From: Eledone cirrhosa | Lineage: Eukaryota | Assembly (NCBI GenBank): GCA_964016885.1 | Contig: OZ024743.1 | Coordinates: forward strand, 69,564,001 to 69,628,000 | DNA: 64,000 nucleotides | Direction: 5' to 3' | Part shown: positions 2,619-62,601 of the stretch, piece after piece | Position numbering within the stretch: the first letter of the stretch is position 1 | Layout: every line of letters starts with the position of its first letter | The notes under the pieces: generated by a model | What the model was told of the DNA's origin: nothing | Databases searched by the model: none | What the model saw: the letters and a program-made list of their open reading frames with translations, nothing else | Program-made: the position numbers and the translations under genes

Positions 2619-3270
2619 CGTGTTGGATGTGTAACGGTAGTTACAGACAGCGCACGTTTTGAAACACTCAATGCTGTTACGAGGTCCGCATCGTGTAGAT
2701 TGTATTCCAGAATTAAGGTAGCTGTAGTGTGCAGGTTGTAAATGGATTGTGTAGAATCGGATTCAATGTTGCAGCACATGTACACACGTTATTGGCACAT
2801 TACAATTTGTTCAATATCGATCCGCTCAGGGTACAATCAAAATGGCATCTCGACATCTCGTCAGATATGTGAGTTTATATGCGCCATTAGATGTCTTCGT
2901 ACACATAAATTAGCATTTAACCCTTCTCTCGGAAACACAGAAAGTTGAAAATATAGAGTTAATTTAACGAATGATGTGCTCATGGGTGATGCTATATAAT
3001 AGCTCATAAAATAGGGGGAAGCCGCTTAAAAGAGTTTTGTAACAGTCAGAAAGATAGGCTACGTATAATGATGTTTGTTTATATATGATGTCTGTTCACA
3101 TCTGAAACTGTGTTTCAGCTATTTTAAGACAGTAAGAGTGTTCCCCGTCCCTTAGCATAATGGTTAAAAACACGTAACCAGTATCTGGGAGATATGAGGG
3201 TTCGATTCGGCATAGCGGCCGATGGCAACTTATATTTTAGACATTTGAGTGTGTTCAACATATATTATAA

Positions 3271-3647
3271 GGTATTGGATTGGCAGTATCGGTAGAGGTT
3301 CGGACGCCATGCTTTGACGCATAGAGTTACGGCCCTTGCCATTCTGAGTTCAAATCCCGCCGAGGTTAACTTTGCCTTTCATCCTTACGGGGTCGATAAA
3401 ATAAAGTACCAGTAATGTACTGGGTAATTTTCTGGCCTTGTGCCAATAGTAGAAACAATTATAAGGTATTAGGGCGGTGGATTGGTTGGACGCCATGCTT
3501 TGCAGCAAAGAGTTACGGCCCTTTATGATCTGAGTTCAAATCCTGCCGAGGTTAATTTTGCCTTTCATTCTTACGTGGTCGATAAAATAAAGTACCAGTA
3601 ATGCACTGGTTAATTGATGTCCTTGTGCCAAAAGTATAAACAATTAT
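3271..3647 (+). mobile_element. Two tandem tRNA-derived SINEs (family A, OK-like)
   Basis: A-box-like TGGCAGTATCGG, B-box GAGTTCAAATCC, conserved core GGTTAACTTTGCCTTTCATCCTTACGGGGTCGATAAAATAAAGTACCAG, and end GGCCTTGTGCC..AGAAACAATTAT. Confidence 0.85.
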
Positions 3648-3848
3648 AAGGTATTTCATAGTGTCTTCGCACAGGAGCATTCTGTATATTAAATCAAGGC
3701 ATATAGCTACATAAAATGATTAGCTATGTTTTTCTTCCATTGCCATTGCTATATTTATTTTGAAAATGAAATGAGATTTTTTCAAAACGCTCAGCTAGAT
3801 GCCTTTTTCTTCTGTCAAGGAAAGTGTAGAAATGTTCTCACACACACA

Positions 3849-6907: not shown

Positions 6908-7286
6908 TTTCCCTCGCATCCATATATACCCATTTCCCTCGCATCCATATATACCCATTTCCCTCGCATCCATATATACCCATTTCCCTCGCATCCATAT
7001 ATACCCATTTCCCTCGCATCCATATATACCCATTTCCCTCGCATCCATATATACCCATTTCCCTCGCATCCATATATACCCATTTCCCTCGCATCCATAT
7101 ATACCCATTTCTCTCGCATCCATATATACCCATTTCCCTCGCATCCATATATACCCATTTCCCTCGCATCCATATATACCCATTTCCCTCGCATCCATAT
7201 ATACCCATTTCCCTCGCATCCATATATACCCATTTCCCTCGCATCCGTATATACCCATTTCCCTCGCATCCATATATACCCATTTC
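6908..7286. repeat. 25-bp minisatellite, ~15 copies
   Basis: Unit TTTCCCTCGCATCCATATATACCCA, nearly invariant. Confidence 0.97.
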
Positions 7287-8427: not shown

Positions 8428-9371
8428 TCACCCAGTCCCAAAAGAGTTACATAGTTCCACTGAAGATGACAAGACATAGGTTGATCTGTGTCTGTTAAAT
8501 GACTCCTGCCCCAAATGCTATGATATTTTATGAAATCCAGGGCCTAATGATATTGAAGCGACCCTCTTAACCATTCGACTACGCTACGTCCACATCATAC
8601 ATATGTATTAAAATAAAGTGCTTTTACAATTTTAAACAGTAACTGTTCCGACATTTAGGATTAGATATGGAATTAAATTTTGAGAAAAGATTTGCAGATG
8701 TGATGAATAAATGTTAATATCGTCAATGAGAATATTTCTATTGTTTGTTAAATATTTTTAAAAATATCAATTAATTCAACTTCATGTAAAGACGACTGTC
8801 TATTCAAGTAAATTATTTTTTTAGAAGACTTGCGGGATAGAATGGCTAATGTACAGAAACGAGAATCAGCTGCAAAATATATTTATAGAACTTCAGAATC
8901 ACATCAAGGTTTGTGTACATGATAACATTTGGCATGTTGAAAATTAGTAATTTCAAAATTTAATCTAAATAAGCAATAAATTATTTCACTTATCCTAACA
9001 AATGAATTTTACAATACACACACACACAGGCAGGCACACACGCACGCACGCACACACACATATATAAGTATATGTATATACAGTATATATTAGATATTAG
9101 TTTAACAATGATTGATAATAATAAAGAAGGCAAGTTATTGTTCATATCCCTTTCATTGTTTTGCGATCGTTTCGGGAGGTTAATCATATACATATATTGA
9201 CTGATCTATAGCAGTTAAAGAACTGTATACTATCAAACATTATATATGTGTTCGATCGTACGTCTTCTTCGAAAACAAAGTATATATATACATATACAAA
9301 GTATATATATATATATATATATACTTTGTATATGTATATATATACTTTGTATATGTATATGTATATATATA

Positions 9372-9858
9372 TATGTATATATAGTGTATTTTGCAATGTA
9401 CTGTATGCTTAATTAAAAACATTTCGAAGACCTTACGCTATTGTTTTAGAGTAGTGACAGTCTCACTTACTTTACATTTTCAGCAAACAGGGGAGATAAA
9501 GCTGAGAGAGTTCTGTTTCGTACTGATTGGTACTTATCAAAGCCAAGTACTCCACCTGTTTGCTGAAAAATCATGAATGTTTGATTCTTATAGTATTCTA
9601 GTAACAATCAGGAACTGATTATACAGAGTGGTTGCCGGTCAAGCAGAAATTGAAAATTAGAATTGGTGCTCTGAAATAGCGATATATATATGAATGTATA
9701 TATAGTGTATTTTGCAATACACTGTTTGCTTAATTAAAAACATTTCGAAGACCTTATGCTATTGTTTTAGAGTAGTGTCAGTCTCACTTACTTTAAATTT
9801 TCAGCAAACAGCGGAGATAAAGCTGACAGAGCTATGTTTCGTACTGATTGGTATTTGA
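9372..9858 (-). mobile_element. 321-bp-period hammerhead-bearing repeat (~1.5 units)
   Basis: AGTGTATTTTGCAAT recurs at 9383 and 9704 (321 bp apart). Homologous to 55003-55368. Confidence 0.8.
9500..9544 (-). ncRNA. Type I hammerhead motif, U3-A8 core variant
   Basis: Minus strand GGCT-TTGATAA-GTAC caatca GTAC-GAAA-CAGAACTCTC-TC-AGCT. The second copy (9821-9855) has CATAGCTCTG, so the consensus helix III is the palindrome CAGAGCTCTG. Confidence 0.7.
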
Positions 9859-12567: not shown

Positions 12568-12956
12568 ATTTATGTTGTGTGGTTTACCAGTGGACAGAGC
12601 TGGTCATTTCGTTTTGTTAACTATGATGTACAAAGTAGAAAAGCATTCTACGATATGTAACTCATCCATTGATGATGTGGTATTCCGTGGCTAGTGCAGG
12701 ATTAAAACTTTAAAGGGACATTTCAAGCCCGGCATTTTCGAAAGACGTTGCAACCGATGGAAAACAGGAAGACGATACTTTGGTTCGTAAGGACGCTCCC
12801 TGGCAATGAACGGAAAAAAACGAGGATTATTGCGTCGTTATGTGATGCGAGGAGAACAATTTCTTGCAAAGACAAAAAAACATTTATGGTATAAATGAAG
12901 TCATTAGACTAATATTCTATTTAGGAAACCGAATGTTTCTAGGCTCGCAGTTTAAG

Positions 12957-13076
12957 AATAATTGTTTCTACTTTTAGCACAAGGCCAGTAATTACCCCAG
13001 TGTATTACTGGTACTTTATTTCATCGACCCCATAAGGATGAAAGGCAAAGTTAACCTCAGCGGAATTTGAACTCAG
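12957..13076 (-). mobile_element. SINE family A, 3' half
   Basis: Reverse complement of the family A core and tail. Confidence 0.85.
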
Positions 13077-13637
13077 TTTAAGAATAATGTAAATAAATTA
13101 GTTGAACGAAAATGACAGGTTATTTAAATCGTAATGTTAGTAATAATAGTTGATATAGGCCTGTGTATATATATATATATATAATATAAGATCAAAAGAT
13201 GGTTAAAGGAGTTCCATATATTTTATTATGCGCATTTCAAAAACAAACATCATCAAGCAATAATATTTGTGTTTTCATCTGATAAAACAGGAGAACATGA
13301 TATGAAGGCTAAAAAACACTTGTTGATAGTGCAGTTTTAAATCAACATATGAAAAGTGGTTTTAGATTGATGTGTGATATTGGGAAAAATATTTTATTTA
13401 GAGAGGGGGGGGGGAGGATGAAAAGGGAAGGAGATGAGAGGGAGAGATGGGTGATAGAGAGAAAGAGATAGTTTTTATAACTGAGAGGAGATATATTTTT
13501 TACATAGAGGGGTTGAAAACCGTTGGAAGATACTGTATAAATTAAAAATTTTGAAAATTAACGAAGGGAGGATATGTGCGAGGAAAAAATATCCGATATC
13601 TGCATTGCTTTATTGTACTACAATAAAACTCACCTCC

Positions 13638-14054: not shown

Positions 14055-15683
14055 GTTCAACTCTGCCTTCCATCCTTTCCAGGTCAATGAAAATAAAATC
14101 AATCTCATATTGTTGTCGCTTCCCTCTTTCGCTCCCTCCACCCTCTCTCTCATTCTCTCTCTCACCCCACCCCCACCTCCCTCCCTGGACGAAGACCTGG
14201 AAATGCGATTGGTTCCGCTAGGTTCAAAGTGCTGTGGACACTATCTTACCGGCGCCCCGATGACACAATTATATATGTATGTATATGTATGTATGTATGT
14301 ATGTACGTATGTAAGTATGTATGTATGTATGTATGTATTTATGTATGTATGTATGTATGTATGTATGTATGTATATATGGCCATACTCGATAACGAGGGG
14401 GCAGCCATCATGTATGTATGTATGTACACATATATATATTGGCCGGGGCATATGTGTATGTGTGTCTATTGCCAGCGATATGCTCTGGTTATATATTTTT
14501 TTTATTTCTTTTTAATGGAAAAAAATCATGAATGAATAGACAGGCAGGTTGTTAATGTGAATACGAGTAGAAATTATAAAGCCATGGTTTATAATAATTA
14601 ATAAATATGTTATTGTTTGAAGGAAACAAGACATCTGTTGTCAACAGACAAGCTTCACTGGAGTTATATACACTCCTACTGATGCTATCTAGCTTATACA
14701 CTGTGTTGACGTAGTTAGGATGTGTAGATATTACCTGGGTAGACACACTGTTTAAAAGAATATTTTGTTTCTTTTTTAAATATAGATGTGAATTTGAATG
14801 ATAGTCACTACATTACGTCTAAATAGATGGAACGATGGATTTTAACTGTGTCAATGTTTACAGTATGTAGATATTGTGAAAATAGTTATACTGTATATAC
14901 ATTAACCTTTCTTTTGATATAATGATCAACTTAGAAACGTTTATATATGGTTTGATGAGATCTATATTTAGCCGTAGAAATGTGGCCATGGATTTGAATA
15001 ATAGATACCAGATTATGTGTAAATATCTACAATGGTAAAACATTGACTGGGTAGATCATCACAATATGGCGTTGTTACTGAGTAAATAAACAGGTGTAAA
15101 TGTCTGAATATATACAATGTGTTAACAATAACCCTTAGTTAGATGTAACGATCAAGTTAGAGACTTTGAGAGATAGATGAATGGATGGATATATATGTTT
15201 TTAAGCGAGAAACGCTGAGACCTCGAGTCACTGCTATATCTTCCTTTCTATAATAAGATATATATATAGATGTGCCTTTGAAGATCATGATATGTGTTTA
15301 TGTGTGTGCGTAAGTATGTGTGTGTGTTCATGTGTGTTACTGGTGTTACTGTCTTATCTCTCTGTACAAATGCTAGAGGCAAAAACGAAAGATAAAGAAA
15401 AGCTTAATACAAAATACATTGCTGCTGTTGCTGTTGTTGTACTTTTTCGTTTTCTTGTCTTTTACTTCTTCCTATTCTTCTTATTTTCCGTCTCTTCCGA
15501 CTCTCCGCACCTCCCCTTCTCACATATCTACACAGACCCACCATCACCACCATCTTCGGGGATTGTCCTCACGCAGTTTCTTGTTACTTTACAACACACT
15601 ATAACATACAATACAACAGAACGTATCCTACCACATTACATGCGAATCATACAACGCCATAACACCCACCCACCCACCACACA

Positions 15684-18545
15684 ATACCACAACACACCAG
15701 AGTATATTACATTACAACACTACACACTATACCAAAACACACCAGAGTATATTACATTACAACACTACACACTATACCACGACACACCAGAGTATATTAC
15801 ATTACAACACTACACACTATACCAAAACACACCAGAGTATATTACATTACAACACTACACACTATACCACGACACACCAGAGTATATTACATTACAACAC
15901 TACACACTATACCACGACACACCAGAGTATATTACATTACAACACTACACACTATACCACGACACACCAGAGTATATTACATTACAACACTACACACTAT
16001 ACCACAACACACCAGAGTATATTACATTACAACACTACACACTATACCACGACACACCAGAGTATATTACATTACAACACTACACACTATACCACGACAC
16101 ACCAGAGTATATTACATTACAACACTACACACTATACCACGACACACCAGAGTATATTGCATTACAACACTACACACTATACCACAACACACCAGAGTAT
16201 ATTACATTACAACACTACACACTATACCACGACACACCAGAGTATATTACATTACAACACTACACACTATACCACGACACACCAGAGTATATTGCATTAC
16301 AACACTACACACTATACCACGACACACCAGAGTATATTACATTACACCACTACACACTATACCACGACACACCAGTGTATATTACATTACAACACTACAC
16401 ACTATACCACGACACACCAGAGTATATTACATTACAACACTACACACTATACCACGACACACCAGAGTATATTACATCACAACACTACACACTATACCAC
16501 GACACACCAGAGTATATTACATTAAAACACTACACACTATACCACAACACACCAGAGTATATTACATTACAACACTACACACTATACCACGACACACCAG
16601 AGTATATTACATTACAACACTACACACTATACCACAACACACCAGAGTATATTACATTACAACACTACACACTATACCACAACGCACCAGAGTATATTAC
16701 ATTACAACACTACACACTATACCACAACACACCAGAGTATATTACATTACAACACTACACACTATACCACAACACACCAGAGTATATTACATTACAACAC
16801 TACACACTATACCACGACACACCAGAGTATATTACATTACAACACTACACACTATACCACGACACACCAGAGTATATTACATAACAACACTACACACTAT
16901 ATAACAACACACCAGAGTATATTACATTACAACACTACACACTATACCACAACAGACCAGAGTATATTACATCACAACACTACACACTATACCACAACAC
17001 ACCAGAGTATATTACATAACAACACTACACACTATACCACAACACACCAGAGTATATTACATTACAACACTACACACTATACCACGACACACCAGAGTAT
17101 ATTACATTACAACACTACACACTATACCACGACACACCAGAGTATATTACATAACAACACTACACACTATATAACAACACACCAGAGTATATTACATTAC
17201 AACACTACACACTATACCACGACACACCAGAGTATATTACATTACAACACTACACGCTATACCACGACACACCAGAGTATATTATATTACAACACTACAC
17301 ACTAAATAACAACACACCAGAGTATATTACATTACAACACTACACACTATACCACGACACACCAGAGTATATTACATTACAACACTACACACTATACCAC
17401 GACACACCAGAGTATATTACATTACAACACTACATACTATACCATGACACACCAGAGTATATTACATTACAACACTACACACTATACCACAACACACCAG
17501 AGTATATTACATTACAACACTACACACTATACCACGACACACCAGAGTATATTACATTACAACACTACACACTATACCACAACACACCAGAGTATATTAC
17601 ATTACAACATTACAACACTACACACTATACCACGACACACCAGAGTATATTACATTACACCACTACACACTATACCACTACACACCAGAGTATATTACAT
17701 TAGAACACTACACACTATACCACGACACACCAGAGTATATTACATTACAACACTACACACTATACCACAACACACCAGAGTATATTACATTACAACATTA
17801 CAACACTACACACTATACCACGACACACCAGAGTATATTACATTACACCACTACACACTATACCACTACACACCAGAGTATATTACATTAGAACACTACA
17901 CACTATACCACGACACACCAGAGTATATTATATTACAACACTACACACTATACCACGACACACCAGAGTATATTACATTACAGCACTACACACTATATAA
18001 CAACACACCAGAGTATATTACATTACAACACTACACACTATATAACAACACACCAGAGTATATTACATTACAACACTACACACTATACCACAACACACCA
18101 GAGTATATTACATTACAACACTACACACTATACCACGACACACCAGAGTATATTATATTACAACACTACACACTATACCACGACACACCAGAGTATATTA
18201 CATTACAACACTACACACTCTACCACGACACACCAGAGTATATTACATTACAACACTACACACTATACCACAACACACCAGAGTATATTACATTACAACA
18301 CTACACACTATACCACAACACACCAGAGTATATTACATTACAACACTACACACTATACCACGACACACCAGAGTATATTACATTACAACACTACACACTA
18401 TATAACAACACACCAGAGTATATTACATTACAACACTACACACTATGCCACAACAGACCAGAGTATATTACATTACAACACTACACACTATACCACAACA
18501 CACCAGAGTATATTACATTACAACACTACACACTATGCCACAACA
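15684..18545. repeat. 45-bp minisatellite array, ~63 copies
   Basis: Unit ACACCAGAGTATATTACATTACAACACTACACACTATACCACGAC, with occasional 8-bp insertions (~17605, ~17795). Confidence 0.97.
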
Positions 18546-19465
18546 CATCAAGGTATATTACATCACACCACACAACTCCACGCTACACCAGGCTACATCA
18601 AACACCACATCACAGAAGACCACACATCATCACACCACACATGATTCATCAGAATAAACAACACTACGCAGCATATAACATCACATTGCACCACGCTACA
18701 CCACACCACACCACACCACATCACACCAGACACCACCATACTACACCACACCACACTACACCACACTACATTACACCACACTACATTATACCACACTACA
18801 CTACACCACACCACATCACACCACACACCACCATACTACACCACACCACACTGCACCACGCTACATTACACCACGCTGCATTATACCACACTACACTACA
18901 CCACACCACACCACACCACACCACACCACACCACATCACACCAGACACCACCATACTACACCACACCACACTACACCACACTACATTACACCACACTACA
19001 TTTTACCACACTACACCACACCACACCACATCACACCAGACACCACCATACTACACCACACCACACTACACCACACTACATTACACCACACTACATTTTA
19101 CCACACTACACTACACCACACCACACCACATCACACCACACACCACCATACTACACCACACCACACTGCACCACGCTACATTACACCACGCTACATTATA
19201 CCACACTACACTACACCACACCACACCACACCACACCACACCACACCACACCACACCACATCACACCACACACCACCATACTACACCACACCACACTGCA
19301 CCACGCTACATTACACCACGCTACAGCACACCTCACCACATTACACCACACTGCACCGTACAACACCACACCACACTACACCACACTACACTACACCACA
19401 CTACACCACACCACATCACGTCACTACCACACCACTATCCATACTAGCACCGCTACCACACATTA
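18546..19465. repeat. Degenerate pentanucleotide (CACCA/CACTA/CATTA) satellite
   Basis: Continuous 5-bp periodicity with local higher-order blocks. Confidence 0.9.
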
Positions 19466-21538: not shown

Positions 21539-24500
21539 TCATCATCATCATCATCACCGTTTTACGTCCGTTCTTCCACGCTAGCATGGGTTAGACGGGT
21601 TGTCCTGTTGTGGGCAGTGTCTGGTCGGCTGACCATGCCTTGCTCATACAGGAACTGATTTGGCTTGATTTCTACAGCTGGATGCCCTTCCTAACACCAA
21701 CCTCATTTACAGTGAGTGCTGGGTGCTTTTTCGTGGCGCCTACACGTCCACTTTACAGTGTGGGCTGGGTGCTTTTTTGCCGTGGCACCTCCACGACCAC
21801 CTTGCGGTGGGGTGTGTGGGGGCATATTGTCTATATGCTTCAGCTTGTACCCAAGGGAGGTCGGGTACTCTGTATTACTGCGTGACGCCAGAGGTCATGG
21901 TCGTGTGTCATTGCCTTTGAGAGGTGTAATTGTGTAAGGTCGGCTTTTATCACCTCATCCCAGGTCATCTTGGGTCTCCCCACTCCGCGGTTTCCATCGA
22001 CTTCTAGTGCTCTGCACCTTTTTTTGCAGCTGTCATCCTTCATACGCATCACATGTCCATACCAGCGCAACCGCCTCTCCTGTACACATCATTTGATTCC
22101 TCTTATGCTCAGTCTCTCTCTCAATTCATTTATGCTTTGTCGTTCACGTATATTACTGTTACACATCCATCGGAGCATGCAGGCTTCGTTTCTCTCTAAT
22201 CTACGTAAGTCTTCCACCTTCAGCGCCCAGGTCTCACTACCATGCAACATTACTGTTCGGATACACGCATCATACAGTCTGCCTTTCATTCTGAGGGAGA
22301 AGCCTTTTGCAGCTAGCAGTGGTAGGAGTTCCCTAAACTTCTTCCATCCCGTTCTTACCCTAGTGATTGTACTTTCTGAACACCCACCTCTGCTGCTTAT
22401 TCGGTCACCTAGGTAGCAGAAGCTGTCTACTGTTTCTACAGAGCCCTCCCAAAGATTGGTGGTTCTTGTTTCCTGTGGCTGTTTGTTGCTTGCTATCCCA
22501 GCACAGCTGCTGCATGTGAAGCCTACATTCTTAATTAAGCTTCCTGAGATCCCGCTACATCTCTTGTGTACCCATTGTTTGCATTTGGGGCAGAGAATGG
22601 AGTTCCTACCTACACCTTTCCTACATACTGAGCAAGGCCATTTCCCTGATGGGATCTGGGTTCTGTTTTCTCGTCTACTTACAAGGACCTTAATCTTTGT
22701 CATGTTGACTTTGAGACCCTTTCTTTCTAGTCCCTGCTTCCAAGTTTGGAATTTATTCTCTAGTTCTACCATAGATTCAGCTATGAGTGCGAGGTCATCA
22801 GCATACAGGAGTTCCCATGGGCATCCGGTCTTAAACTCCTCCGTTATTGCCTGCAGGACTATGATGAACAGGAGGGGGCTAAGAACAGAGCCCTGGTGGA
22901 CCCCAACCTGTACGCTAAATTCCTCACTATACTCATTGCTAATCCTAACATTGCTGACTGCTCCCCTATACATGGCTTGTACCGCTTTCACAAGCCATTC
23001 ATCTACTCCTAGTTTTCTAAGATCCCACCAGATTATAGCACGTGGAACTCTGTCAAAGGCTTTCTCAAGGTCGACAAATGCCAAGTAGAGTGGCTTACAT
23101 TTAGCTAGGTACTTTTCCTGTAACTGCCTCACAAGGAAGAGGGCATCAGTGTTGCCTCTTCCTGGTACAAACCCAAATTGCATCTCGTCTATTTTCACCC
23201 GGTCCCTAATCAACTGTGCTATAACTCTTTCTGTTACTTTCATGACCTGGTCCATCAACTTTATACCTCTATAGTTTCCTCTATCTAGTGCATCGCCTTT
23301 ACCTTTGTAGCAGTTGACAATGATGCTACTGCACCAATCTTTTGGTATGACACCTTCTAGTATTACCTGGTTAACAATACGTGTGGTTATGGTGTGACCT
23401 ACAGACCCAGATGCCTTCAGCATCTCGGCAGCTATACCCGATGGACCGGTTGCCTTCCCCATCTTCATATCTTTGATTGCCTTACTTACTACGTTGCTGC
23501 AGACTTGTACTGCTGGCCCCTCTATAGGGTCTACTTGGGGTAGGGTCTCTTCTTCCCATGCATTCTCCTCATTTAGTAATCTATCATAATGACTCTTCCA
23601 TGCATCTTTCTTCTCAGCACTTGTGAGGGCAAGCTCACCTTTATCATTCCGGATACACTTCTCTCCAATGACATCACAACTATCTCTGACACACTGCCTC
23701 GCAATCTTGAACACCTCCTGTTTCTGGTCCTCACGTTGCAAAACATGCTTGAATTTTCTATCCTCTGCTTCCCTCCTAGCTAAGTATACTTTTCGCCTAG
23801 CTTCCCTCTTGGTCTCTATGTAATGTACCCTGCTCCCCCCGTTCTTCCATTCTTTCCATGCCTGTCTCTTGGCCTTAACTGCTTCATCTACCTTATTGTT
23901 CCACCACCAAGTCAATCTCCTCCTGCTTGAGGTCTTACTCCAGCCACAGACCTCATCCGTCGCCTCTAGTAAATTATTTTTTAGGAACTCCGAGTTCTCT
24001 TCTACATTGAATGTCTCTATCTGTTCTTCTTTACTGTCGTAGGCGTTGAGTAAAATATCTTTAAATCTGTTACTGGTTGAGGGGACTTTCAGCTTCCACA
24101 TCTTTTTTCTCCAGGTTGGCCTCTGTTTCCAGGTTCGTCTAGTTCTGACCGTGAGGTCGCTGACAACTAAGCTATGTTGGGATGTACATACCTCACTAGG
24201 GAAGGCTTTTGTGTTTACGACCGTCCATCTGTCACGTCCTCTGATGAGGATAAAATCTATCTGACTGGAGTGCTCCCCTGATCTATAGGTGATCAGGTGG
24301 TTGTCGGGTTTTTTAAAGTTTGTGTTACATATCGACATGTCATTGGCGTCGCAGAATTCTAGAAGTCTGAATCCTTCCTCATTTCTTGTGCCAACCCCAT
24401 GGCCTCCATGTACTCTATTGAAGCCGTCGCAGTGTTTACCTACGTGTCCGTTAAAATCTCCTGCGATGATTAGGAAGTCATTGTCGTCTGTTAGAGCAGT

Positions 24501-25104
24501 AGTGTGCATTAGGGACTCGTAAAACATATCCTTAAGTTCGTCTTGCAGCCCCGATTGGGGTGCGTAAGCTGATATTATTGTGGTAATTGTTTTATTCAGG
24601 ACTAGTCTGAGTTTAATGATTCTTGCATTTACCCTGTACACTGAGATTACTTTATCTACCCACTTGTCAGCTAATAGTATACCTACACCACCCATCCCAT
24701 CGTCATTTCCCACCCAGAAAAATTTGTAACACCGACTTTTTCCTACAAGGACTCTGGCAGACTCTCCTCTCCATCTAGTCTCTTGCACACAGCATACATC
24801 AATTTCCTTTCGCTCTAGCATTTCTACGATTTCTCCTGCTCTTCCTTTCATTGAGCCTACATTGATGGTACCAACTCGGAGTTTTGGCCAGTTGTCGACA
24901 CTCGTAGGGGAGGGTCTTTGGGTTGGCGCTTCACATGGGTGCTTGGTAGTTCGCAGATTCATATTTCATCTATTGATTCAGAGTTGCTCAAATTTATTCT
25001 CAGCTCATCCATCCATAACGGTGGGAAAATTGAGGGCTAGGAGAACAGTGGTGGTGGGATAATGGCAAGGTGTGTTGGGCTGAGACAGGGGAGGAGAGAG
25101 TTAG

Positions 25105-25227: not shown

Positions 25228-25230
<3 letters not shown>

Positions 25231-25680
25231 GTGGTTATAAGAGGCTTAGCTCTGTTTCTCGACCGTTATATCGCGTGACTATCTCCCCCTCCGCCTTTTG
25301 GGATTCTTTCTCACGTCGTGTAGACGCGTTCTTGAGACTAGTAAAATGAGGTATCCTCTTGATAAGTTGGCAGACCTCGCAAGGACTCTATATCTTTGAT
25401 ATATTGTTTTTGTTTATGCCACGAAACTACGTAGTCGAGGAATTTAGGAGCAGTTTAGGTATGATACATTTTATTACTAATTATATCTAAATGTTTCTTC
25501 TCTCTTCATAATGTATTTTTAACTCTGATACTGGTTCAGTCTGGTTCAAACTGAATTGGTCTGTCCCAGTCATTCATTGAGCAACATCGGTGAAGTTGGC
25601 ACCCTTAACTCACAGTTGGGTGCGGATGCATTCATGTATATATGTGTGTGTCCGCATGTATCTGTGTGTTTCTAAATATA
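25228..25680 (+). mobile_element. 5'-truncated copy of the 595-bp hammerhead repeat
   Basis: Nearly identical to 61517-61968; flanked by (TA)n. Confidence 0.9.
25354..25441 (+). ncRNA. Type I hammerhead ribozyme, U3-A8 core variant
   Basis: TCCTC-TTGATAA-GTTGGCA...TGCCAC-GAAA-CTACGTAG-TC-GAGGA. Confidence 0.75.
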
Positions 25681-25760
25681 TATATATATATATATATATA
25701 TTTAATATAGAAGAGCTTCTACAGGACTAGAACTATTTCATTCGGGAGAAATCATCACGT

Positions 25761-29258: not shown

Positions 29259-30222
29259 AAGGTTAACTTTGCCTTTCATCCTTACGGGGTCGATAAAATA
29301 AAGTACCAGTAATTCACTGTAATTGCTGGCCTTGTGCCAAAAGTAGAAACAATTATATTGGAAGAATCAGTAACGTGTCGGACATCATGCTTTGCATCAG
29401 AGAGTTACGGCCCTTTACGTTCTGAGTTAAAGTCCCGCCGAGGTTAGCTTTAAGTTTCATCCTTGCATGGTCCATAACATAAAGTACCAGTAATGCACTG
29501 GGTAGATTTAATCGAATTTCCCCTCCTCCAGAATTGTTAGCCATGTGCCTAAATCAGAAACCATTATTATTAGGCAGTATCGGTAGAGGGTCGGACGCCA
29601 TGCTTTAACGCAAAGAGTTACGGCTCTTTCCATTCTGAGTTCAAATCCCACCGAGGTTAACTTTGACTTTCATCCTTACGGGGTCAATAAAATAAAGTTC
29701 CAGTAATACACTGAGTAATTGCTGTCCTTGTGCCAAAAGTAGAAACAATTATTATTATTAAACAGCGGTATGGCGGTGGATTTGCAGAATCGGTAGAGCG
29801 TCGGACATGGTCAGCGGAACTGAGTGATGGCCCTTTTCGTTCTGAGTTAAAATCCCGCCGATGTTAGCTTTTCCTTTCATGCTTCCGGGGTCGTTAAAAT
29901 TAAAACTATAGTAATGCACCGGGGTCGATTTAATCGACTTTCCCTTCCCCTCAAATTACTCGCCTAGTGCCTATACTAGAAATCATTATTAAAGGGCAGT
30001 GGATTACAGTATCGGTACAGGGTCAGACACCATGCTTTGCAGCATAGAGTTACGGTTTTTTAAGTTCTGAGTTCAAATCTCGCCGAGGTTAACTTTGTCT
30101 TTCATCCTTACGGGGTCGAGAAAATAAAATATCACTCACGCTCTAGGGTCGATTTAATAGACTTTCCCTCCCCCAAAATTGCTGGCCTTGTGCCTGAATC
30201 ACAAGCCATTATTATTATTATT
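29259..30222 (+). mobile_element. Head-to-tail array of five SINE family A copies
   Basis: Five cores, each ending in AGAAACAATT/AGAAACCATT-like sequence plus (ATT)n. The copies differ from one another. Confidence 0.9.
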
Positions 30223-30764
30223 GTTTACCTCTTGCATTTCTCCCATTTTCTGGTATGTACTTTCATACTGGTAGCCATTGTGTGTGCGAAGTGGCAAAAG
30301 ATGTTTGTGCGTTGGTGTGTGAGAACGTTTGCTCAAAGATCAACTATTATATAATTATATGTATGGCCGTTTCTCTTACATGTCAGCGTGTCCACGTGGA
30401 AGATATTGTTGCTTGTTCAATATTTGGTATTGGAAGGCATATATACATATTTATGTTTTCCATAAATGTAAACCTCCATTTATGTGCTCCTTGGTAGACT
30501 TTCAGTAATATGACAGTGGAGGTATTCGTCTTGGATTATATATACGGTTACTTAAGGGGGCGAGTAGAGGTGTTGGGTGACCCCCACTTGGCTTCTGTGT
30601 CGTTGTCTGTGGTGTGGGGCATTCCAAGGACATATAGATTATTCAGACAGATTACCGTCATGTTTCATGTTGGGTTCCTTCAGATGTAAAATTTGCAGGC
30701 AGTCCCCGTGTCGAATTGTAATGTTCAATGTCTTATTCTCCTGTGGGTGTATCGTGACCATGGT

Positions 30765-35350: not shown

Positions 35351-36219
35351 TTTCCTGGGCAGCAAAGTCTGATCAGACAATTTAACAAGACTGTTTAGCT
35401 TTCACTTCATTTACTAATTATTTCCCCGATAAATTGGAGGGACGACCAAACAGAAAAGTAAAGCAATTTCAGCTCAGATCTGCTGTATCCATATCAAGAA
35501 AGCATTTAGATGTTAGAGTCCTGTATTTTCTCGATCTCCTCTAACGTTTCCCTTCTCCACAAACATCAACAACAATACCACCACCACCATCAAGAACAAC
35601 ACTACACACAACAAATGCTCCAACTTTAAGCGTATATACAGTACATGTAGTCCGACTTCTAAATGATATCTAAGAAATACTGTAATTTAATTGTTTAATT
35701 GATATAATCTATCAAATATCTGACAGATTTCGTGTGGCAGACAATCAAAAGAAACTGATTTTTTCCTTTCCCCACTTCACGATACCCTTAATCCGACCTG
35801 TTAATTATCGCTAAAGGCATGACATTATCCATTAATAATCTGCAATTTCTACGTCTAAATCTTCATTGAGGATAAGTGTCTAACACAGATTTGTATATGT
35901 ACATAAAGCTTGAGATTAAGTGTTGCTCTAGGTATATAGTGATGTATTTCTAATGTTATTGTTGCCGTTGTTATTTTGTTGTTGTTGTTGTTGTTGCCGT
36001 GGTAATGATTTTCGGTTTAATTCCATGCTACTAATGGTGGCGGTAGTCATGATGGACAAGTTCAGTTGTGGGTGGTGATGCCTGGTGGTCTTCAACAGGT
36101 TGTCTCTACTTATTATATATTTAGGGAATACAAATCACTCTAAACAACAACAACAACAACAATGCATGGTGTCCAACGCTCTACCAATATAATAATAATA
36201 ATGATAATAACAATAATAA

Positions 36220-36414
36220 TAATAATAATAATTGTTTCTACTTTAGGCACAAGGCCAGCAATTACCCAGTGCATTACTGGTACTTTATTTTATCGACCCC
36301 GCAAGGATGAAAGGCAAAGTCAACCTCGGCGGGATTTGAACTCAGATCGTAAAGGGACGTAACTATGCTGGAAAGCATGGCGTCCGACCCTCTACCCATA
36401 CTGCCAATCCACCG
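36220..36414 (-). mobile_element. SINE family A
   Basis: Full reverse-complement copy between (AAT)n tracts. Confidence 0.88.
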
Positions 36415-36424
36415 ATAATAATAA

Positions 36425-36511
36425 TAATATCTGAGGCTGCAGGTAGTGGCTTGATATTCATTTCAACAAATTTTCCAGTTAACTAACATCAATGACTGAG
36501 ACTCAAAGAAC

Positions 36512-36543: not shown

Positions 36544-39500
36544 TTTCTTTATTGGCCACAAGGGCTGACATCAAGAAAAATATTACAGACGGCACAGGAC
36601 GGTACAGGACGGTACGATGTGGGTTTTGTGCGTGTAAATATTTTTATTATTTATATAAGAAAAGAAAAAAAAGGACATAGATACATATATATATATATAT
36701 ATATAAATAATAAAAATGAAAATTGAAACAATGAAAAATTCCCTAATAGGGGGGAAACCTCCGAGGGTTACTCGTGGCGAAAACCACACAAAAGACCACA
36801 GCGACCCTGACCACCAGGGCAAGCGCCCTCTCTCAATTTTTCCATCTCTCAAACTACAGACGTATATTCAGAGTTCACTCGGACCATTCTCGCTACATTC
36901 ACCCACCTTTCAACAAACTTGCTAGAAAGCAGCACTTGCCTCTCCACCCTGATTTTCCTCTTCAAGTGAAACTTGAAAAAGTTAATTAGGGATTCGCCGA
37001 AGAGGAAAGTGTCTGTCTTTAACCCTTTTAACCTTGTCCACCGCACAATCTCTTTCGCCATGGCCACCAGGCAGATGAAAACCGCCTGCCCTTCTTCCTC
37101 GAAGGTAGACAGCGAGACCATCTGCACAATGGACTCAGTCGACAACCGGATCAGTCCCACACGCGCAGCAACTGTTCGACATAGCTCCACAAGTCAGCAA
37201 TGCTCGGGCGCTGAACGTGTGCGTGCACGACGGTTTCGTCGCTCTGCGCGCATCTCCGACAGGCTCGGCTGACGGCACTGCCGTACCCGTAGAGTTTATC
37301 TCGAACCGGCAACGCTCCCCGGTAGCACTGTTAGGCCAGGGATTTTTGGAAGTTATTCATAGGCCCCGGGCTGAAAGTCCTCCGGAAGAGAGCAAACAGC
37401 TGATCTTCTTCGACGCCCAGGATCTCTCCGAGAATGTCGTCGCTCTTCCCCTCCACTAGTCCTCTATAGAACGCCGAGGTGGATGTTCCACCGATACTGG
37501 TTCCCAGCTGGGAGAGGGCAGTGAGCGCCTGCAGACATTCCAGTTTCCAAGCGCTATCCCTCGGTCTTTTTCTGACCCAGGACTGCAGCTCTGTCAAGGA
37601 GACGAGCTGTGGGAAAACGTGCCTGGAGAACGGCGACCACACCTGTTCACCATCAAGGATGCACCAGAGATGTCGCAGCCTCAGTGCATGTTTGCGCATC
37701 ATCAGCCATGGCATGCCCAATCCTCCACGCAACGGGTGTTGACAGCAGATGGATCGTCTGACCATGGGAGCGCGTCCCTTCCACAAAAAGCGGAAGAGGA
37801 GGCGCTCCATTTTGGCGAGAGTTGGGCTGGAGCAAAGGACGACAGTGAGGCGGTAGCAGATGACGGATGCGATGTACGCATTCGCCACCTCCGCCAGGCC
37901 TTTCAGGGACAGCTTCTCTCAACCCATTTCTGGGTGAGCGAGGCCACCCTGCTCGTCACATCGTTCCAGTTTTTCTCCATCTGGAGGTCCGGTCCGAACC
38001 AGACCCCGAGCAATTTAACCAGTCCGTCCGTCCAACGCTAAACGACGCTGTCGGACGGCATGGACTTGCCTCTCCAGGTGCCGTGCTGCAAGCCCACCGA
38101 CTTTTCATGGTTTATCTTTGCTCCTGTCACCGCTTCGTATTCATTGAGAGCGGTGCCGAGCATCTGGACGTGTCTGGTGCTCGACACCACCACCCTGACG
38201 TCGTCAGCGTAAGCCGACTCGGATTTCCCGCATCAACGTTCGCGTGGGACGCCCCTCATCGCCCCCAGTTTGTGCAGTAACGGCTCGAGAGCCAATACGT
38301 ACAAGAGGGACGAGAGGAGACAATCCTGGCGGACTGAGCGCATGATGCTGAACGGCTGCGACAGGTGACCGTTCACCCTCACAACTGAGCAGATGTCGTT
38401 GTTCATTGCTGCGATCCAACCCCTGAAAACGGGCCCGAAACCCGCTGCCTCGAGGACCGCCGCCAGGTACCGATGGTCGACCCTATCGAATGCTTTGGAT
38501 TGATTCAATTTGATCAGGGCCCCACCCGTGCCAGGTTCCTTAACCACCCTCTCTATGATGTATCGCATGAGGTGGAGATTGTCGTGTATGGATCTGTCAG
38601 GAATGGCGCATGTCTGCGCCTCTCCCACCAGACTGTTGACGACAAGCGCTAACCTCGTTTCTAACACCTTGGCCAAAATCTTGACCTCTGCGTTTAGCAG
38701 GGTTATGGGCCTGAAATTATCGATAACATCCCCCTTGTTTGGGTCTTTTCTCAGCAGCGCCACTGCTCCTCCTCTCACAAAATTGGGAATGCTGCCGTTC
38801 TGCTGCCATTTGCAGTAGACGTCTCCTAAGAGGGCACCGAACAAGTCTGGCATAAATGCATAAAGCTTGTAGGCAGACCATCCAAACCTGGCGATTTACT
38901 TCTTGTGCAGTTAACCATTGCTTCCCGTATTTCACCGACTGTTATTGGCTTTCGCAACACTGTGCTGCGGTCTTCGGGAGCCGAGGCAGTCAGTAGATGT
39001 ATGCACTGAAGTCCATGCCCCGATCCGGGCCGCCGCCGCTCCCGAACAGTTCAGCAAAGTGCTGCTGAAAGGCTTCACACATCCTCTCGGTTTCGAGCAT
39101 CACGCACCCGTTTTGGTCAGACAAAGACCGAATTGTGGCTTTGTTGCCACGTCGCGCCTCTGCCACCCGGGCCCATTGGACGGCTTTTGTCCCCTCATGT
39201 TTCAGAGCACGCGCTCTAGCTCTGACAACGCAGCCTTCGTGTTTTGCGTTGAAGAATTGGTCGAGTGCCAATCTCGCCGCAAGCACGTCGGATGCGATGC
39301 CTTTCCTAAACGCCTCTTCTAGCTTTCTGACTAGCTCTCCCTCTACTCTATTTTCCTCTATCACTACTCCTTTGCTAAACCTAATTGACTCTCCCTTAAT
39401 TGCCCTTTTCAGGCCTACCACCACCTGTTGTTGATGATCGCTCCCGTCAACGCCCGCTTAACTAATACGCTAATCCTGTCTCTGTAGGCTTTGCACGCCG

Positions 39501-40806
39501 GGAATGACGCGTTCAGCTTCCAGTAACCAGGCCCTTGTCTATGAAGTCTGTCTATGTCGATCTCATAGATCACAAATTTGTGGTCTGTGTAGTCGACTAT
39601 TTTAAATTGTGGACAACTTATACTAGCCTTATCTAGTTCTCTGCAGAAAACCCCATCGAGATACATCTGGATGACCCGATGCGGTTTGTCCATGTCCACA
39701 TTGGCACATTCGGGTGATCCAGTCGATACCTGTCAGAAAATTCAAAACGTCTGAGCAGGTTGGTGAGACTCTTGCACCCTCCTTCCCTATCCACTAGCCC
39801 AACACGATTCCAGCGTGCATCCAAGATACCGTTCCAGTCGCCCACTAACACTAAAGAGCGGGATGTTCCAAGAAAGTTCTCTAGACGTCTGAAGAAATCT
39901 GGCCGTCCTGCCCCTGTTGGGGCGTAGACGGCTACTAGCTTGAAAGCATTGCCTTCGCTGCCGGTCACGTCCAGCACCACCGACTTACCTTCTGGTTCTA
40001 GGAAGATGGCTCGTGTCGCGAGATCCAAGCCTCTCCGAAAAAGGACGGCAACCCCCTCCCTCGATCCTGGACGGCTGGGAGATGCCTATACATCGTAGTC
40101 GCCGAAGATCTGTGCGAAGGCTTGTGCTTCTGAGATTCTGGTTTCACTGATGGTCACCACATCTATGTTTAGTGACCTGTGGTCGTTGAGCAGGTGACCC
40201 TGCTTCCAAGATGACCCCAGGCCATGTGCATTTATACTGCCTATTCTGAGTACGGCAATGTTGGATGAGGAACGGGGCAAGTGAGAAAGGGTCACTTACC
40301 TTGTTCCTGTGGTGAAGGGACAGTAGAACCGTCCCTTTCGCTGGTCATGGGTGTTTCCAAGAGGATGTCAGTGTATATCCTCTTGGTACCCGACCCTCTG
40401 AGGGTCTCCAGCTGCGTTGGGGAATTTTTGTTTTAAAGGTTTGTACTGTTCTATTTAGATTTCGATGATGCTTATGTTTGTCGGGAGAGTTCTTAGTGTT
40501 GGTGGGGTCTAGTAGTTTTTTTCTGTGATATGTGTGCTGTTTTATATATTGTATGAGTTCTTTTTTTGCCATGTTTATGGCTGTGTACTTTTTGGTGGAG
40601 GGGTGATTTTGTTGCTGCTTTCTTCTTGTTGCTGTTTGGTGTGTGTGTCTTGTTGTGTTTGCGTTGTTGGTGTTTTGGGTGATGCTGGTGGTGGTGTGGT
40701 TGTTGTTGTCAGTGGTATTTGTGGTGGTGATGGTGGTGGTGTTGCTGCAAGTTTGCTTGCTGCCTTTACCCCACTTTGTATGCCTTCGCTTTTGGAGGGT
40801 GAATCT
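36541..40806 (-). mobile_element. Tx1/L1-clade LINE, frameshifted ORF2 with probable ORF1 remnant
   Basis: APE LRIGSINAHGL, ISETR, VAVYAP, VGDWNGILD, TDHK, GPGYWKLNAS; RT NFRPITLLNAEVKILAKVL, SKAFDRVDH, AYADDV; GGLGMP; AATAAA and (ATT)n tail. Assignment of 40345-40806 to ORF1 is inferred. Confidence 0.88.
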
Positions 40807-40816
40807 AATAATAATA

Positions 40817-41159
40817 AGGAGGTGATTGATGGTAAGCTCTCCCTTTCCCAACTTGTATCCTGCTCTCACGTTCGCAGTATAATGGTCAGGGGCATCAGGG
40901 CAAGGACAAACAACAGAGGGGACAGACTATCTCCCTGGAAGATACCTCTCTTGATCTTCACGCCTCCCAAGGATTCTCCAGAGTTAACATCAGCTGAAGA
41001 ATCCTTGGGAGGCGTGAAGATCAAGAGAGATATCTTCCAGGGAGACAGTCTGTCCCCTCTGTTGTTTGTCCTTGCCCTGATGCCCTTGACCATTATACTG
41101 CGAAAAGTGAGAGCAGGATACAAGTTGGGAAAGGGAGAGCTTACCATCAATCATCTCCT
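40817..41159. repeat. Fold-back inversion at the 5' end of the R4-like element
   Basis: 40817-40981 is the reverse complement of ~40995-41159, with only a few mismatches and a ~13-nt spacer. Confidence 0.95.
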
Positions 41160-42683
41160 CTTCATGGATGATCTTAAGCTCTTCGGGAAGAATGGGAAGG
41201 AGTTGGATGTGCTTGTTGACACTGTCCGTATTTTCAGCAATGATATATGTATGAAATTTGGTATTAGTAAGTGTGGAGTGCTTGTGATGAAGAAGGGTAA
41301 ATTGAGCAGAAGTAACGGAATCCGGATACCAACAGGTGAGATAATAAAGGAAATTGACACTGAAGAATGATACAAGTATTTGGGTATTCTGGTGGCTGAT
41401 GACATCAAGAACATAAAAATGAAACAATTGATAAGATTTGAATACATTCGGAGAGTAAGGAGTGTATTAAAGTCACATCTGAACAGTAGGAATGCCATAA
41501 GTGCAGTAAATTCCCGAGCTGTGTTTATTATTGGGTACAGTGCCGGAATTCTTAGATGGAATGTTGCTGAACAAAAAGAGATGGATAGGAAGACTAGGAA
41601 GCTATTGACTATCTACAACATGTTCCACAAGAGGAGTGATGTGGATAGACTCTACTTAAGGAGATCTGAAGGTGGAAGAGGTCTTATCAGCTTAGAGGAC
41701 TGTGTTCAGATGGAACTAAACAACCTACACAAATACGTGACTGATAGTAAGGAGCCAATGCTCAGAATTGTACTGAAGGAGAGGACAATAAACCAGGGGA
41801 TGTTGAAGGAGCAAATAACAACGAGGAGAAAGAGCAACCTTCATGAAAAATCCCTTCATAGTACCTTCTTTGAGAAAACTGAATTCAGAGATCCACAGAC
41901 ATGGAACTGGTTGAAAAGAGGAGACATTAAAAAGGCTACAGAAGGAATTCTAATGGCTGCGCAAGAGCAGGCCCTCAAAACGAAGTGGCTGAAACACCAT
42001 ATTTACAAGGAGGAGGCTAGCCCACTGTGTAGGATGTGTGGAGAGAGAGAGGGGACTGTGGCTCACATTGTATCCGAGTGTAAACACCTAGCCCAGACTC
42101 ACTATAAGGGCTGGAGACATGATGTGATGGGCAGGGTGATCCACTGGCACATATGCAAAGTAAACAATTTACCACATTCTGAGAAGTGGTATGAGCATAA
42201 GCCAGAGTCGGTGATAGAAAACGATCAGGTGAAGGTGCTGTGGGATTTTAGGATACAGACGGACAAGAAACTGGAACACAATACACCTGACCTGGTGGTT
42301 TTGGACAAAGGAAAAAAGATCGTGCCTGATTGTGGATGTGGCCTGCCCATTCGACACGAAAGTGCAAGAGAAGGAGAGGGAGAAAATTAACCGATACCAG
42401 GACTTAAAGTGGGAGGTAAAAAGAATTTGGAACTGCCATGATGTCAAAGTGGTCCCGATTGTCATAGGCGCACTAGGTACTATCTCAAAACGTTTCCAGG
42501 GATGGTTAAAGAAAATTGGGCCCGCCCCGCTTTTTGGAACGCTTCAAAAGGCATGCTTGCTGGGAACAGCAAGAACCCTCCGATACGTCCTGAATATCTG
42601 AGGCTGCAGGTAGTGGCTTGATATTCATTTCAACAAACTTTCCAGTTAACTAACATCAATGACTGAGACTCAGAGAACAATAA

Positions 42684-43767: not shown

Positions 43768-43951
43768 CAATAATAATAATAATTGTTTCTACTTTTGGCA
43801 CAAGGGCAACAATTACACAGTACATTACTGGTACTTTATCTTATCGACCCCGTAAGGATGAAAGGCAAAGTTAACCTCGGCGGGATTTGAACTCAGTCCA
43901 TAAAGGGACGTAACTGTGCTGTAAAGCATGGCGTCCGACCTTCTACCGATT
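43768..43951 (-). mobile_element. SINE family A
   Basis: Reverse-complement copy with (AAT)n. Confidence 0.88.
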
Positions 43952-44172
43952 AATAATGATAATTGTCCTGATAGCAAGAAGAAATATCTAAGAGTGAAGA
44001 CCTAATTAGGTCTATCGGTACACCTAACTCATATTGATAAGAAGACAGCTGCTGACAGATAGTGAAATGGGGGAATTGAAGGTAGTTAATATAAGGTGGA
44101 ATGTTCGTACTCAATAAATAGGTTTAGTGTCTTGGATTCGATGTCCTGTTTGACATGATTTATTTACATAAA

Positions 44173-46432: not shown

Positions 46433-47786
46433 CGGTTTCAACACACGTTTTCAGATAAAGAATCTTGCTAAACAAATTCAGAAACGAAATATATATATAT
46501 ATATATAGTAATAATAATAATAAATTTGAAGACTAAAATCCAAAGAAGATCCCGTTAAGGGTGAAATACCGATTCTTTGCTTAAACTTTAATCTGTTATT
46601 TTAATATATATATATATATATATTATATACCAGCAGAGTTGTCCGGTAATTCTCGGATATTTTTGTGAAAGTAACGATATATTTTGGCACATATTACAAA
46701 ATATTTGAGCAACCAAATAATATTACTATGTTTTCATTGAAGTAGGAATACAAATCAAAATACAAATACATCAGAAATACAAATCAAAATACTTGAAGGC
46801 TATTCTGAAAACCATAAAGGAAATTATATTCGGGGAGAGTCATGTTGTCCTGACATCGCCACTTTAGTTATAATAATATACATAATATAGTTAACATTGG
46901 CTCATGAATGAACTAATATGAAGCATTTACTTATTGATTTCTGTAATTCAGGAAAGTGTATTTAGATGTTTACATTGTAGTTTTCACCAACCTTTGCCTA
47001 AAAGACAGTAGAGTCGTGTTTGAGGGAGATTCGTTCTTTATTACTTTCACGTACACCAATAATTATAGTGGTTCCAACGTCGTACTTACAACCACGCACA
47101 CACACGCACTCATACACACAAACACATACACGCACATGTATGTATGTCATGTGTGTGTAAGACAGTCGGCTGTGATTTGAGAGGGATTTTACTGATATCT
47201 CTAGGAGATCGAGTTATCACATAGAACATTTCCGTTTTGATCCATATATTATACATACATGAGACAGTAGGGAGTGAGGTGAAGGAAATATTGCTAATTC
47301 TAACAAGTCTATTTACCACAAAAAGATCTCATTTAAACTGCTTAATATAGCAGAGGTACCCGTGGATGCCTGCATATTCTCCCACAGTAAAACTATGCAG
47401 TTCAGTTAGGACTTCAGAATTCCTTACAACCTACATGACTAAAGAAATAGGTTATATGTCTATTGTCATTGAAGAAGGATTACGATACTGTCTTGCTCAT
47501 AGACATTTCCATTTCAAAAGCTCTAGATAAACAATATTCTTGGTTTCACAGTATGGTGCTACAATGAAGAGACAATAAGGATTTCCAATATATGTAGTAT
47601 CAACATAAAGTTGACTGTCTGAAATGACAGGATCTGTGGGCTTCAACCCAATGACTTCAAATGATTGCTTTTGAGATTTATTGATGGTCATGACAAAACT
47701 GAGTCTGATAGGAAATTGATACCTTTGAAACTCAAAAGTATTCCGGAAGTGAAACAATTGTCACCCGCAAGATTGTATGGTATTAT

Positions 47787-47979
47787 TGGGTGGTGTATTG
47801 GCAGTATTGGTAGAAGGTTGGACGCCATGCTTTTTAACATAGTTACATCCCTTTACGGTCTGAGTTCAAATCCCGTCGAGGTTAACTTTACCTTTCATCC
47901 TTACGGGGTCGATAAAATAAAGTACCAGTAATACACTGGCGTAATTTCTGGCCTTGTGCCAAAAGTAGAAACAATTATT
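47787..47979 (+). mobile_element. SINE family A nested in the Helitron
   Basis: Full copy interrupting helicase sequence at an ATT. Confidence 0.88.
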
Positions 47980-48379
47980 GCAGTTTCTAGGACATGGGGC
48001 ATAATATTTTTGATGATGAGTGTTCTGCCATTGCAAAGATTTGGAATATCTAGATAATGAAGTTACATATCCGATGTTTCAGCCTTCAGAATCATGTTGT
48101 GTGGAAGATTTCCTGTCCGTTCAATACTGTTCAAAAATTCAGTTGGATAGTTAACAATCTGGTCTTGGGAAGTGATTCTGTCAACTGAGTAGTAGTAGTA
48201 TCCTTTCTCTCTAGGTGATATCTCCAGCGGGCTTCTGTTGATTTCTTTCAAAGCAACATTTTCGGTGCTAAAATTGCTCGATCACAGATTCATTTGGGAT
48301 CACAGTGTCTGTTTTGAATATTTACCAGAACGGATTGTCAGAATCTTTCAGATTCTCGCAATCCGCTCTTGTTCCATTT

Positions 48380-48568
48380 TAATAATGGTTTCTACTTTTG
48401 ACACAAGGCCAGCAATTATCCCAGTGTATTACTGGTACTTTATTTTATAGATCTTGTAAGGATGAAAGGCAAAGTTAAACTCGGCGGGATTTGAACTCAA
48501 ACCATAAAGGGCCGTAACCTTTTGCTGCAAAGCATGGCGCCCGACCCTCTACCGATACTGCCAATCCC
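48380..48568 (-). mobile_element. SINE family A nested in the Helitron
   Basis: Full reverse copy. TTTTAAT on both sides is a possible TSD. Confidence 0.88.
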
Positions 48569-54871: not shown

Positions 54872-55368
<497 letters not shown>

Positions 55369-61022: not shown

Positions 61023-61103
61023 ATATATATACATTATGAAGAGAGAAGAAACATTTAGATATAATTATTAATAAAATGTATCATACCTAAACTGCTCCTA
61101 AAT

Positions 61104-62567: not shown

Positions 62568-62601
<34 letters not shown>

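Follow-up and report, generated by a model that had tools for sequence, protein, structure and literature searches.

A probable non-autonomous retrozyme family of Eledone cirrhosa with Penelope-type insertion ends

Two diverged loci, A and B, within the 64,000-nt window of Eledone cirrhosa DNA (the whole stretch that was analysed) are members of a single repeat family present in thousands of copies. Judged from its sequence, this family is very likely a non-autonomous animal retrozyme inserted by a Penelope-like reverse transcriptase. The ends of its copies are set by two internal reverse transcription start sites of Penelope type, a feature that the first-pass annotation of this DNA had overlooked. 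Animal non-LTR retrozymes have already been described, with Penelope-like elements proposed as their mobilising partner (PMC7229834), and retrozymes have been argued to be non-autonomous partners of Penelope elements (bioRxiv 10.64898/2026.07.22.740005). The retrozyme class itself is therefore known; what this family adds is the quantified insertion anatomy.

Each window locus is a single inserted arm (Table 1). Copy A (L001, 1484-1974) has a minus RNA sense and its RNA 3′ end at the short start site (S); it is 5′-truncated within a second hammerhead, and its microsatellite runs into the ATATATAT patch of the element itself at 9362-9372, the S site. As first proposed, both loci begin adjoining (TA)n in the same register of the unit, and both run past one unit with a period of exactly 321 nt (locus A, 9362-9532 against the sequence 321 nt further on, ungapped, 159/171 matches; locus B, 55004-55047, ungapped, 43/44 matches). 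Against scores of 135 for locus A and 41 for locus B, the runner-up periods reach 14-15. The two loci are also diverged yet alignable, as claimed (71.9% identity over 374 columns, 20 gap positions); copy B is 88% identical to other copies of its subfamily, and A and B copies share a mean of 75%. The view that 321 bp is a conserved constant of the family had to be dropped, as unit lengths range from 309 to 326 nt and mostly lie between 317 and 323. Distinct units measure 309-323 nt in subfamily A (mode 320, 13/27), 318-322 nt in subfamily B (mode 321, 3/6), 317-318 nt in subfamily C (3/3) and 318-326 nt among nine unclassed units. Copy A carries a private extra base near position 9566 that most relatives lack, so the equal value at both loci is partly coincidence: unit length is tightly kept, and the figure of exactly 321 is partly chance. 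No stop-to-stop frame of at least 100 aa overlaps either locus, indicating no coding capacity there, and the 2-kb bins around the two loci have 31% and 36% GC.

Table 1. Features of the two retrozyme copies in the window
Feature	Position	Strand	Details
(TA)-rich microsatellite, target of copy A, next to its RNA 3′ end	9281..9372	none	
Copy A, subfamily A	9363..9853	-	One inserted arm, ~1.5 units
Long hairpin that extends stem I and encloses the hammerhead	9477..9569	-	Fold z -5.7
Type I hammerhead core of copy A	9500..9544	-	Predicted cut between 9504 and 9503
L start site TTCTAAT in copy A	9656..9662	-	Read through here
Second, incomplete hammerhead of copy A	9821..9853	-	Has stems II and III but a truncated core; cut site 9825/9824
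(TA)n target of copy B, next to its RNA 3′ end	54875..55000	none	
Copy B, subfamily B	55003..55368	-	One arm, ~1.1 units; 3′ end at S site
Hammerhead core of copy B	55131..55176	-	Predicted cut between 55135 and 55134

The window holds other repeats. Two homogeneous minisatellites were found, a 45-bp array of 64 copies (15678-18571) and a 25-bp array of 15 copies (6908-7286), together with a recent repeat unrelated to the retrozyme, present in direct and inverted copies with 96-99% identity (61029-62597 and 25228-25709). Long LINE-like frames lie at 22089-24965 (minus strand; 958 aa, with endonuclease- and reverse transcriptase-like motifs recognised by eye), 36849-39732 and 40516-42601. A further repeat of ~190 nt (3263-3660, 12953-13077, 29260-30225, 36215-36426, 43769-43966, 47781-47980 and 48380-48579) is partly tandem, ends in (TTA)n and shows no visible hammerhead; we take it to be probably a SINE on account of tRNA-like motifs resembling A and B boxes, again seen by eye.

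Across the 3.0-Gb genome (1796 contigs), DNA searches with the two loci returned 2619 and 2324 first-look candidates, 40 of each being scored. An exact core pattern matched 2041 times and its reversed control not once; for a 33-nt 3′ motif the figures were 2930 and 0. At least five subfamilies can be told apart by core and stems: those with a TTGATAA core have a stem II of GTAC/GTAC, GCAC/GTGC, GCTT/AAGC or CGCT/AGCG, and those with a CTGAGGA core one of ATAC/GTAT or ACAC/GTGT. Multimers reach 14 units in L174, a single S-primed arm with star-like divergence, and 17 units in the L173 array, whose block duplications show that DNA-level expansion also produces multimers. In L178 (983-1610), one arm holds three tandem 164-nt units from which the hammerhead is wholly absent, head-to-head with a fragment of Penelope-like family F7; tandems can therefore arise without the ribozyme. 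Two sets of near-identical insertions with shared, inverted flanks (L020/L021, 320 kb apart; L158/L160, 2 kb apart) reflect either segmental duplication or an assembly artefact. Private changes occur in the ribozyme core at 2.9%, against 1.8-3.9% in the rest of the unit, indicating that inserted copies decay neutrally. In RNA sense, dispersed copies show no A-to-G excess (0.91%, against 0.98% T-to-C) and hence no editing imprint.

The unit carries one predicted type I hammerhead, and the family presents the complete type I core (C3/U3-U-G-A-N-G8/A8-A, G-A-A-A, U16.1-H17 and three helices); many individual copies are damaged. In copy A the core comprises stem I GGCT/AGCT, TTGATAA (with U3-A8), stem II GTAC/GTAC, GAAA and stem III, so that the stems first read there were correct, as was the minus-strand TTGATAA...GAAA...TC core at both loci. 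Penelope-like elements of Schistosoma have been reported to carry a U3-A8 variant of the core (PMC4209133). In copy A, stem III is damaged by private changes at 9506 and 9511; position 16.2 (9506) is a C where ~98% of the relatives, by depth, have a G. The enclosing hairpin, which reaches a fold z of -7.0 in a better-preserved copy, folds equally well on the plus strand in copy A and is thus uninformative on strand. Stems I and III of copy B contain private changes, and the copy has a fold z of -2.0, against -4.8 in L032 of the same subfamily. The suspicion that individual copies may be inactive was well placed, given the C at 16.2 and the cut-off second core of copy A; together with the weak fold of copy B, these defects indicate that both window copies are probably dead. 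A strict hammerhead scan missed both window copies, which are damaged, and an Rfam search of the whole window returned no hammerhead match, only simple-repeat microRNA matches. On the better copy L007, Rfam model HH9 aligned the core correctly at 17.8 bits (E value 0.051), below its gathering score of 52, and the Rfam hammerhead families gave no match on L125. Other hammerhead-like motifs, with a C3-G8 core, occur in L101 (8067 and 8578, 511 nt apart) and on the minus strand of L097, and possibly represent further retrozyme families.

Covariation between loci A and B had been offered as a sign of selection on ribozyme structure. Two of the three stems named for locus B proved to be peculiar to that copy. 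Its stem I, GTGGGC/GCCCGC, is private: among 29 other B copies, 22 carry GGTC ahead of the core, mostly pairing with GGCC; likewise, 25 of 29 keep CAGA in helix III, and the CGGA of copy B is a private A-to-G change. Stem II does pair at locus B, not as GCT/AGC but as CGCT/AGCG; the A-A mismatch at the foot of this stem in subfamily B is a point against the overall reading favoured below. Helix III does not covary between A and B, but it does in a further subfamily (CATG/CATG in L111). In an alignment of 12 hand-picked related sequences, 95.8% of the cells were paired and 9 of 14 pairs had changed on both sides, against at most 2 in slid controls; this set spans few events, its shuffle control ignores kinship and it is not an R-scape analysis. 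Core pair 3-8 reads UA in 8 of 12 and CG in 4 of 12, a change between C3-G8 and U3-A8. The argument from covariation to selection accordingly stands across subfamilies, although it draws on a handful of events at lineage level and in part on pairs different from those first cited, and the ribozyme is quite likely functional in the master templates.

We surveyed the ends of the insertions at 70 loci, the first listed matches to the 3′ motif on contig C1. These loci gave 89 anchors; once 25 internal ones had been set aside, 64 terminal arms remained. This count includes both L158 and L160 and leaves out arms with an inexact last anchor, among them both long arrays. Among these arms, sampled by their 3′ motif, RNA 3′ ends are bimodal: 34/64 lie at S, an ATATATAT patch located some 130-143 nt beyond the cut site, and 30/64 at the long start site (L), the motif TTCTAAT ~168 nt past it. 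The two classes are ~26-36 nt apart, both downstream of the hammerhead, as in the two-end tails of Penelope-type elements, and RNA 3′ ends thus fall at internal sites and not at the cut site. At least three TA repeats follow 29/30 L ends and 24/34 S ends, in keeping with a microsatellite or AT-rich target. Short-read contigs also break into TA at 9656, the L site (41-54 per run), in three runs that come from no more than one sample, which may be that of the assembly itself, and so are not independent and cannot reveal circles. The 5′ ends are ragged, with no position holding more than 2/64 arms. The cut site is reached by 53 arms, of which 50 cross it, 10 of them twice, and 3 stop there; 24/64 arms are longer than one unit. 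Read-through of the cut site is therefore routine, and a cleaved linear monomer cannot be the usual template. Reconstruction of empty sites yielded too few homologues to call target duplications, which in animal non-LTR retrozymes are longer than 4 bp when they occur; TA targets also mask them.

Many insertions consist of two arms joined head-to-head. Across 127 loci we counted 52 such pairs, 11 with an unclassifiable end; among the 41 classifiable ones, 37 combine L with S, 4 combine S with S and none L with L (binomial p 5e-8 against 0.5). The inverted, 5′-truncated second arm with a tail at one end only, seen in these 37/41, is a Penelope-type feature. Solo arms number 32 L, 31 S and 7 other. 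The S arm is the longer one in 21/37 L+S pairs; either arm can be longer, so we reject simple cDNA fold-back as the origin of the inverted arms. The two arms are of the same subfamily in all 35 typed pairs. Minor-allele discordance affects 16/80 sites between passes within an arm and 15/80 between arms, compared with 7105/8120 (88%) in random pairs, so a haplotype is shared both by successive passes within an arm and by paired arms.

These features recall autonomous Penelope-like elements. In AT-rich DNA, the Poseidon protein of the anole nicks both strands; it begins reverse transcription at two adjacent internal sites that lie past the hammerhead, which accounts for the 30-40-nt tail. For this protein, the one Penelope-like enzyme assayed in vitro, unprocessed RNA was the main substrate, and hammerhead mutants were not impaired in insertion (PMC11167929). 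Partial tandems, inverted truncated arms, a one-end tail and a microsatellite bias are described as traits of Penelope elements (PMC8557442, PMC3846280). We consider Penelope-type insertion of the retrozyme family highly probable.

The Eledone genome offers many potential partners, with 10,597 GIY-YIG candidates and several families combining reverse transcriptase and GIY-YIG domains. Family F1 (L091, G000:C1:145868500-145877500) is represented by a near-complete pLTR-ORF-pLTR element with a 938-aa frame, in which Pfam GIY-YIG scores above and RVT_1 just below the cut-off. It has a U3-A8 hammerhead and a CX4CXXC linker, which is tied to Neptune elements (PMC8557442), and its 3′ end, TTCTAAT followed by (TA)n 145 nt past the predicted cut, resembles the L site. 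Of six F1 pairs, four are clearly L+S, one is S+S and one is cut by the locus edge. An F1 3′ fragment also lies in the window (52125-52402, plus strand), with a minimal U3-A8 hammerhead at 52161-52190 and a TTCTAAT end running into TA. At least six other pLTR-ORF-pLTR Penelope-like families exist besides F1, of which F5 also has a U3-A8 hammerhead. Palindromic elements derived from the F3 pLTR (L148, L184, L198 and L112) have two arms starting at nearly the same position, which suggests a fixed RNA 5′ end and fold-back for these F3 elements.

Retrozyme 5′ ends are joined to Penelope-like DNA in four cases, two involving F1 (L111 and L174), one F3 (L112) and one F7 (L178). In L111 and L174, an S-started retrozyme arm directly adjoins, with no TA between them, F1 sequence whose end is the F1 L site, and the L111 joint has twin-priming geometry; in L199, F1 abuts the TA at the retrozyme 3′ end, probably as a separate insertion. 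TA is likewise absent from 55/63 solo 5′ joints, so that co-insertion and later resection are inseparable here. We had taken F1 to be a proven partner from the joints in L009/L111 and L174, and lowered this assessment after the F3 and F7 joints and the TA-less 5′ joints came to light; Neptune-type F1 is now a tentative candidate for a partner. Comparison of the retrozyme unit with the autonomous pLTRs of four families (local alignment against shuffles) revealed no homology, and a profile search of 70 GIY-YIG loci, a small sample of the 10,597 candidates, found no homologous pLTR. The repeat contains no reverse transcriptase/GIY-YIG ORF, such ORFs occurring only as neighbours. The pLTR homology expected of a deletion derivative of a resident Penelope-like element was thus not seen in the sampled families and loci.

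Overall, we favour with moderate confidence a ~320-nt non-coding hammerhead repeat that spreads by Penelope-type target-primed reverse transcription, probably from an RNA circle. Multi-unit copies would be transcribed, and the hammerhead, probably dimerising via its palindromic helix III, would free monomers (PMC4209133, PMC7229834). A host ligase could then circularise these, as other retrozymes have been circularised in vitro with RtcB (PMC7229834). A Penelope-like complex of reverse transcriptase and GIY-YIG endonuclease would cut (TA)n, both DNA ends would prime synthesis on the RNA, S serving one end and L the other, and reverse transcription would run for one to many turns. A more specific version, in which a viroid-sized circle without kin among autonomous elements is taken up by Penelope-like enzymes of more than one family, with both ends of a cut (TA)n primed on a single circle, each at its own fixed site, up to 14 turns and an occasional jump to the helper's RNA during that insertion, appears doubtful.

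The nature of the template is where the principal alternative differs. Penelope-type insertion could start from a linear, uncleaved multimer transcribed from arrays or multi-unit copies, with the hammerhead trimming read-through or acting later and circles arising as by-products. Such a multimer, if homogeneous, would give an identical genomic trace, so haplotype sharing and read-through fit both templates; for the same reason, the equal period at the two loci, from which copying of a circular RNA had been deduced, is no proof of it, as an uncleaved linear multimer gives the same terminal redundancy. The existence of 14- and 17-unit arrays, one with DNA-level block duplication, the 3/53 arms that stop at the cut site and the preference for unprocessed RNA in vitro (PMC11167929) all speak for a linear template, and of nine frog retrozyme dimers one was cleaved in vitro (bioRxiv 10.64898/2026.07.22.740005). 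However, 5′ ends pile up at no transcript start or cut, a linear lineage would only lose length yet 24/64 arms exceed one unit, one TA-primed arm holds 14 star-like units, and a ribozyme with compensatory change in every subfamily would be expected to cut the multimer. We therefore regard the linear template as rather unlikely. The circular template is favoured because there is no fixed 5′ end, because the cut site is read through despite a selected ribozyme and because of the 14-unit star-like arm, and we hold it to be reasonably probable.

Readings that dispense with Penelope-type insertion fare worse. The family could be a SINE-like element moved by a LINE, with the hammerhead serving as a processing signal; LINEs, too, show 5′ truncation and inversion, and LINE-like ORFs occur in the window. 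The arms nevertheless overlap and both start at fixed internal sites in TA, unlike those of LINE twin priming, Rfam finds no tRNA-like head at locus A or B, and one-sided tails with partial tandems are described as Penelope traits (PMC8557442, PMC3846280), which makes a LINE-driven origin very unlikely. Least probable of all is a DNA-level repeat, such as a MITE, a Helitron-like element or a dispersed satellite, whose hammerhead-like fold would be incidental. The inverted arms of many copies do resemble terminal inverted repeats, and tandem arrays exist; against this, the arms differ in length and end site, the 5′ ends are ragged and a catalytic-core pair covaries between C3-G8 and U3-A8.

The way in which animal retrozymes move is still a hypothesis, based on co-occurrence with Penelope-like elements and on pLTR homology. 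The Eledone family adds a Penelope start-site signature in thousands of copies, near-strict pairing of one S with one L end and routine read-through of the cut site. This anatomy makes two questions testable, namely whether a Penelope-like reverse transcriptase copies a circle made by a ribozyme, and whether a dimeric enzyme gives each DNA end its own start site. We found no start-site mapping for a retrozyme in the literature, although end maps or related families may be present in the supplements to PMC7229834 and to the preprint; the one-end tail has already been noted for autonomous elements (PMC3846280, PMC8557442), and the family may already be catalogued in repeat databases.

With the animal non-LTR retrozymes of coral, mussel and axolotl and newt satellite 2, the family shares a non-coding, AT-rich unit of 150-450 nt, a single type I hammerhead and a range from monomers to long tandems (PMC7229834); its own units of 309-326 nt are non-coding, carry one hammerhead and form tandems (10/64 arms cross the cut site twice). 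It differs from them in that its cleavage and circles are predicted, in occurring mostly as dispersed insertions of 0.3-2 units in (TA)n, in its mapped internal start sites, which are not described in the sections of PMC7229834 consulted, and in the U3-A8 core of most subfamilies. Vertebrate retrozymes likewise co-occur with Penelope elements and have units near 320 nt, dispersed monomers and local multimers; they are linked to Penelope by pLTR homology (24/57 frog families), whereas the Eledone family is linked by insertion anatomy (bioRxiv 10.64898/2026.07.22.740005). Penelope-like elements themselves (Poseidon PAc of the anole, the Neptune clade and rotifer Penelope) share with it two reverse transcription starts past the hammerhead with a 30-40-nt tail (PMC11167929, PMC8557442, PMC3846280), as well as a tail on one inverted end, partial tandems, 5′ truncation and microsatellite or AT-rich targets (PMC8557442, PMC3846280). 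In contrast to these elements, the Eledone repeat has no ORF, its whole unit is ~320 nt and its hammerhead departs from the minimal form through a full, palindromic helix III and a long extension of stem I.
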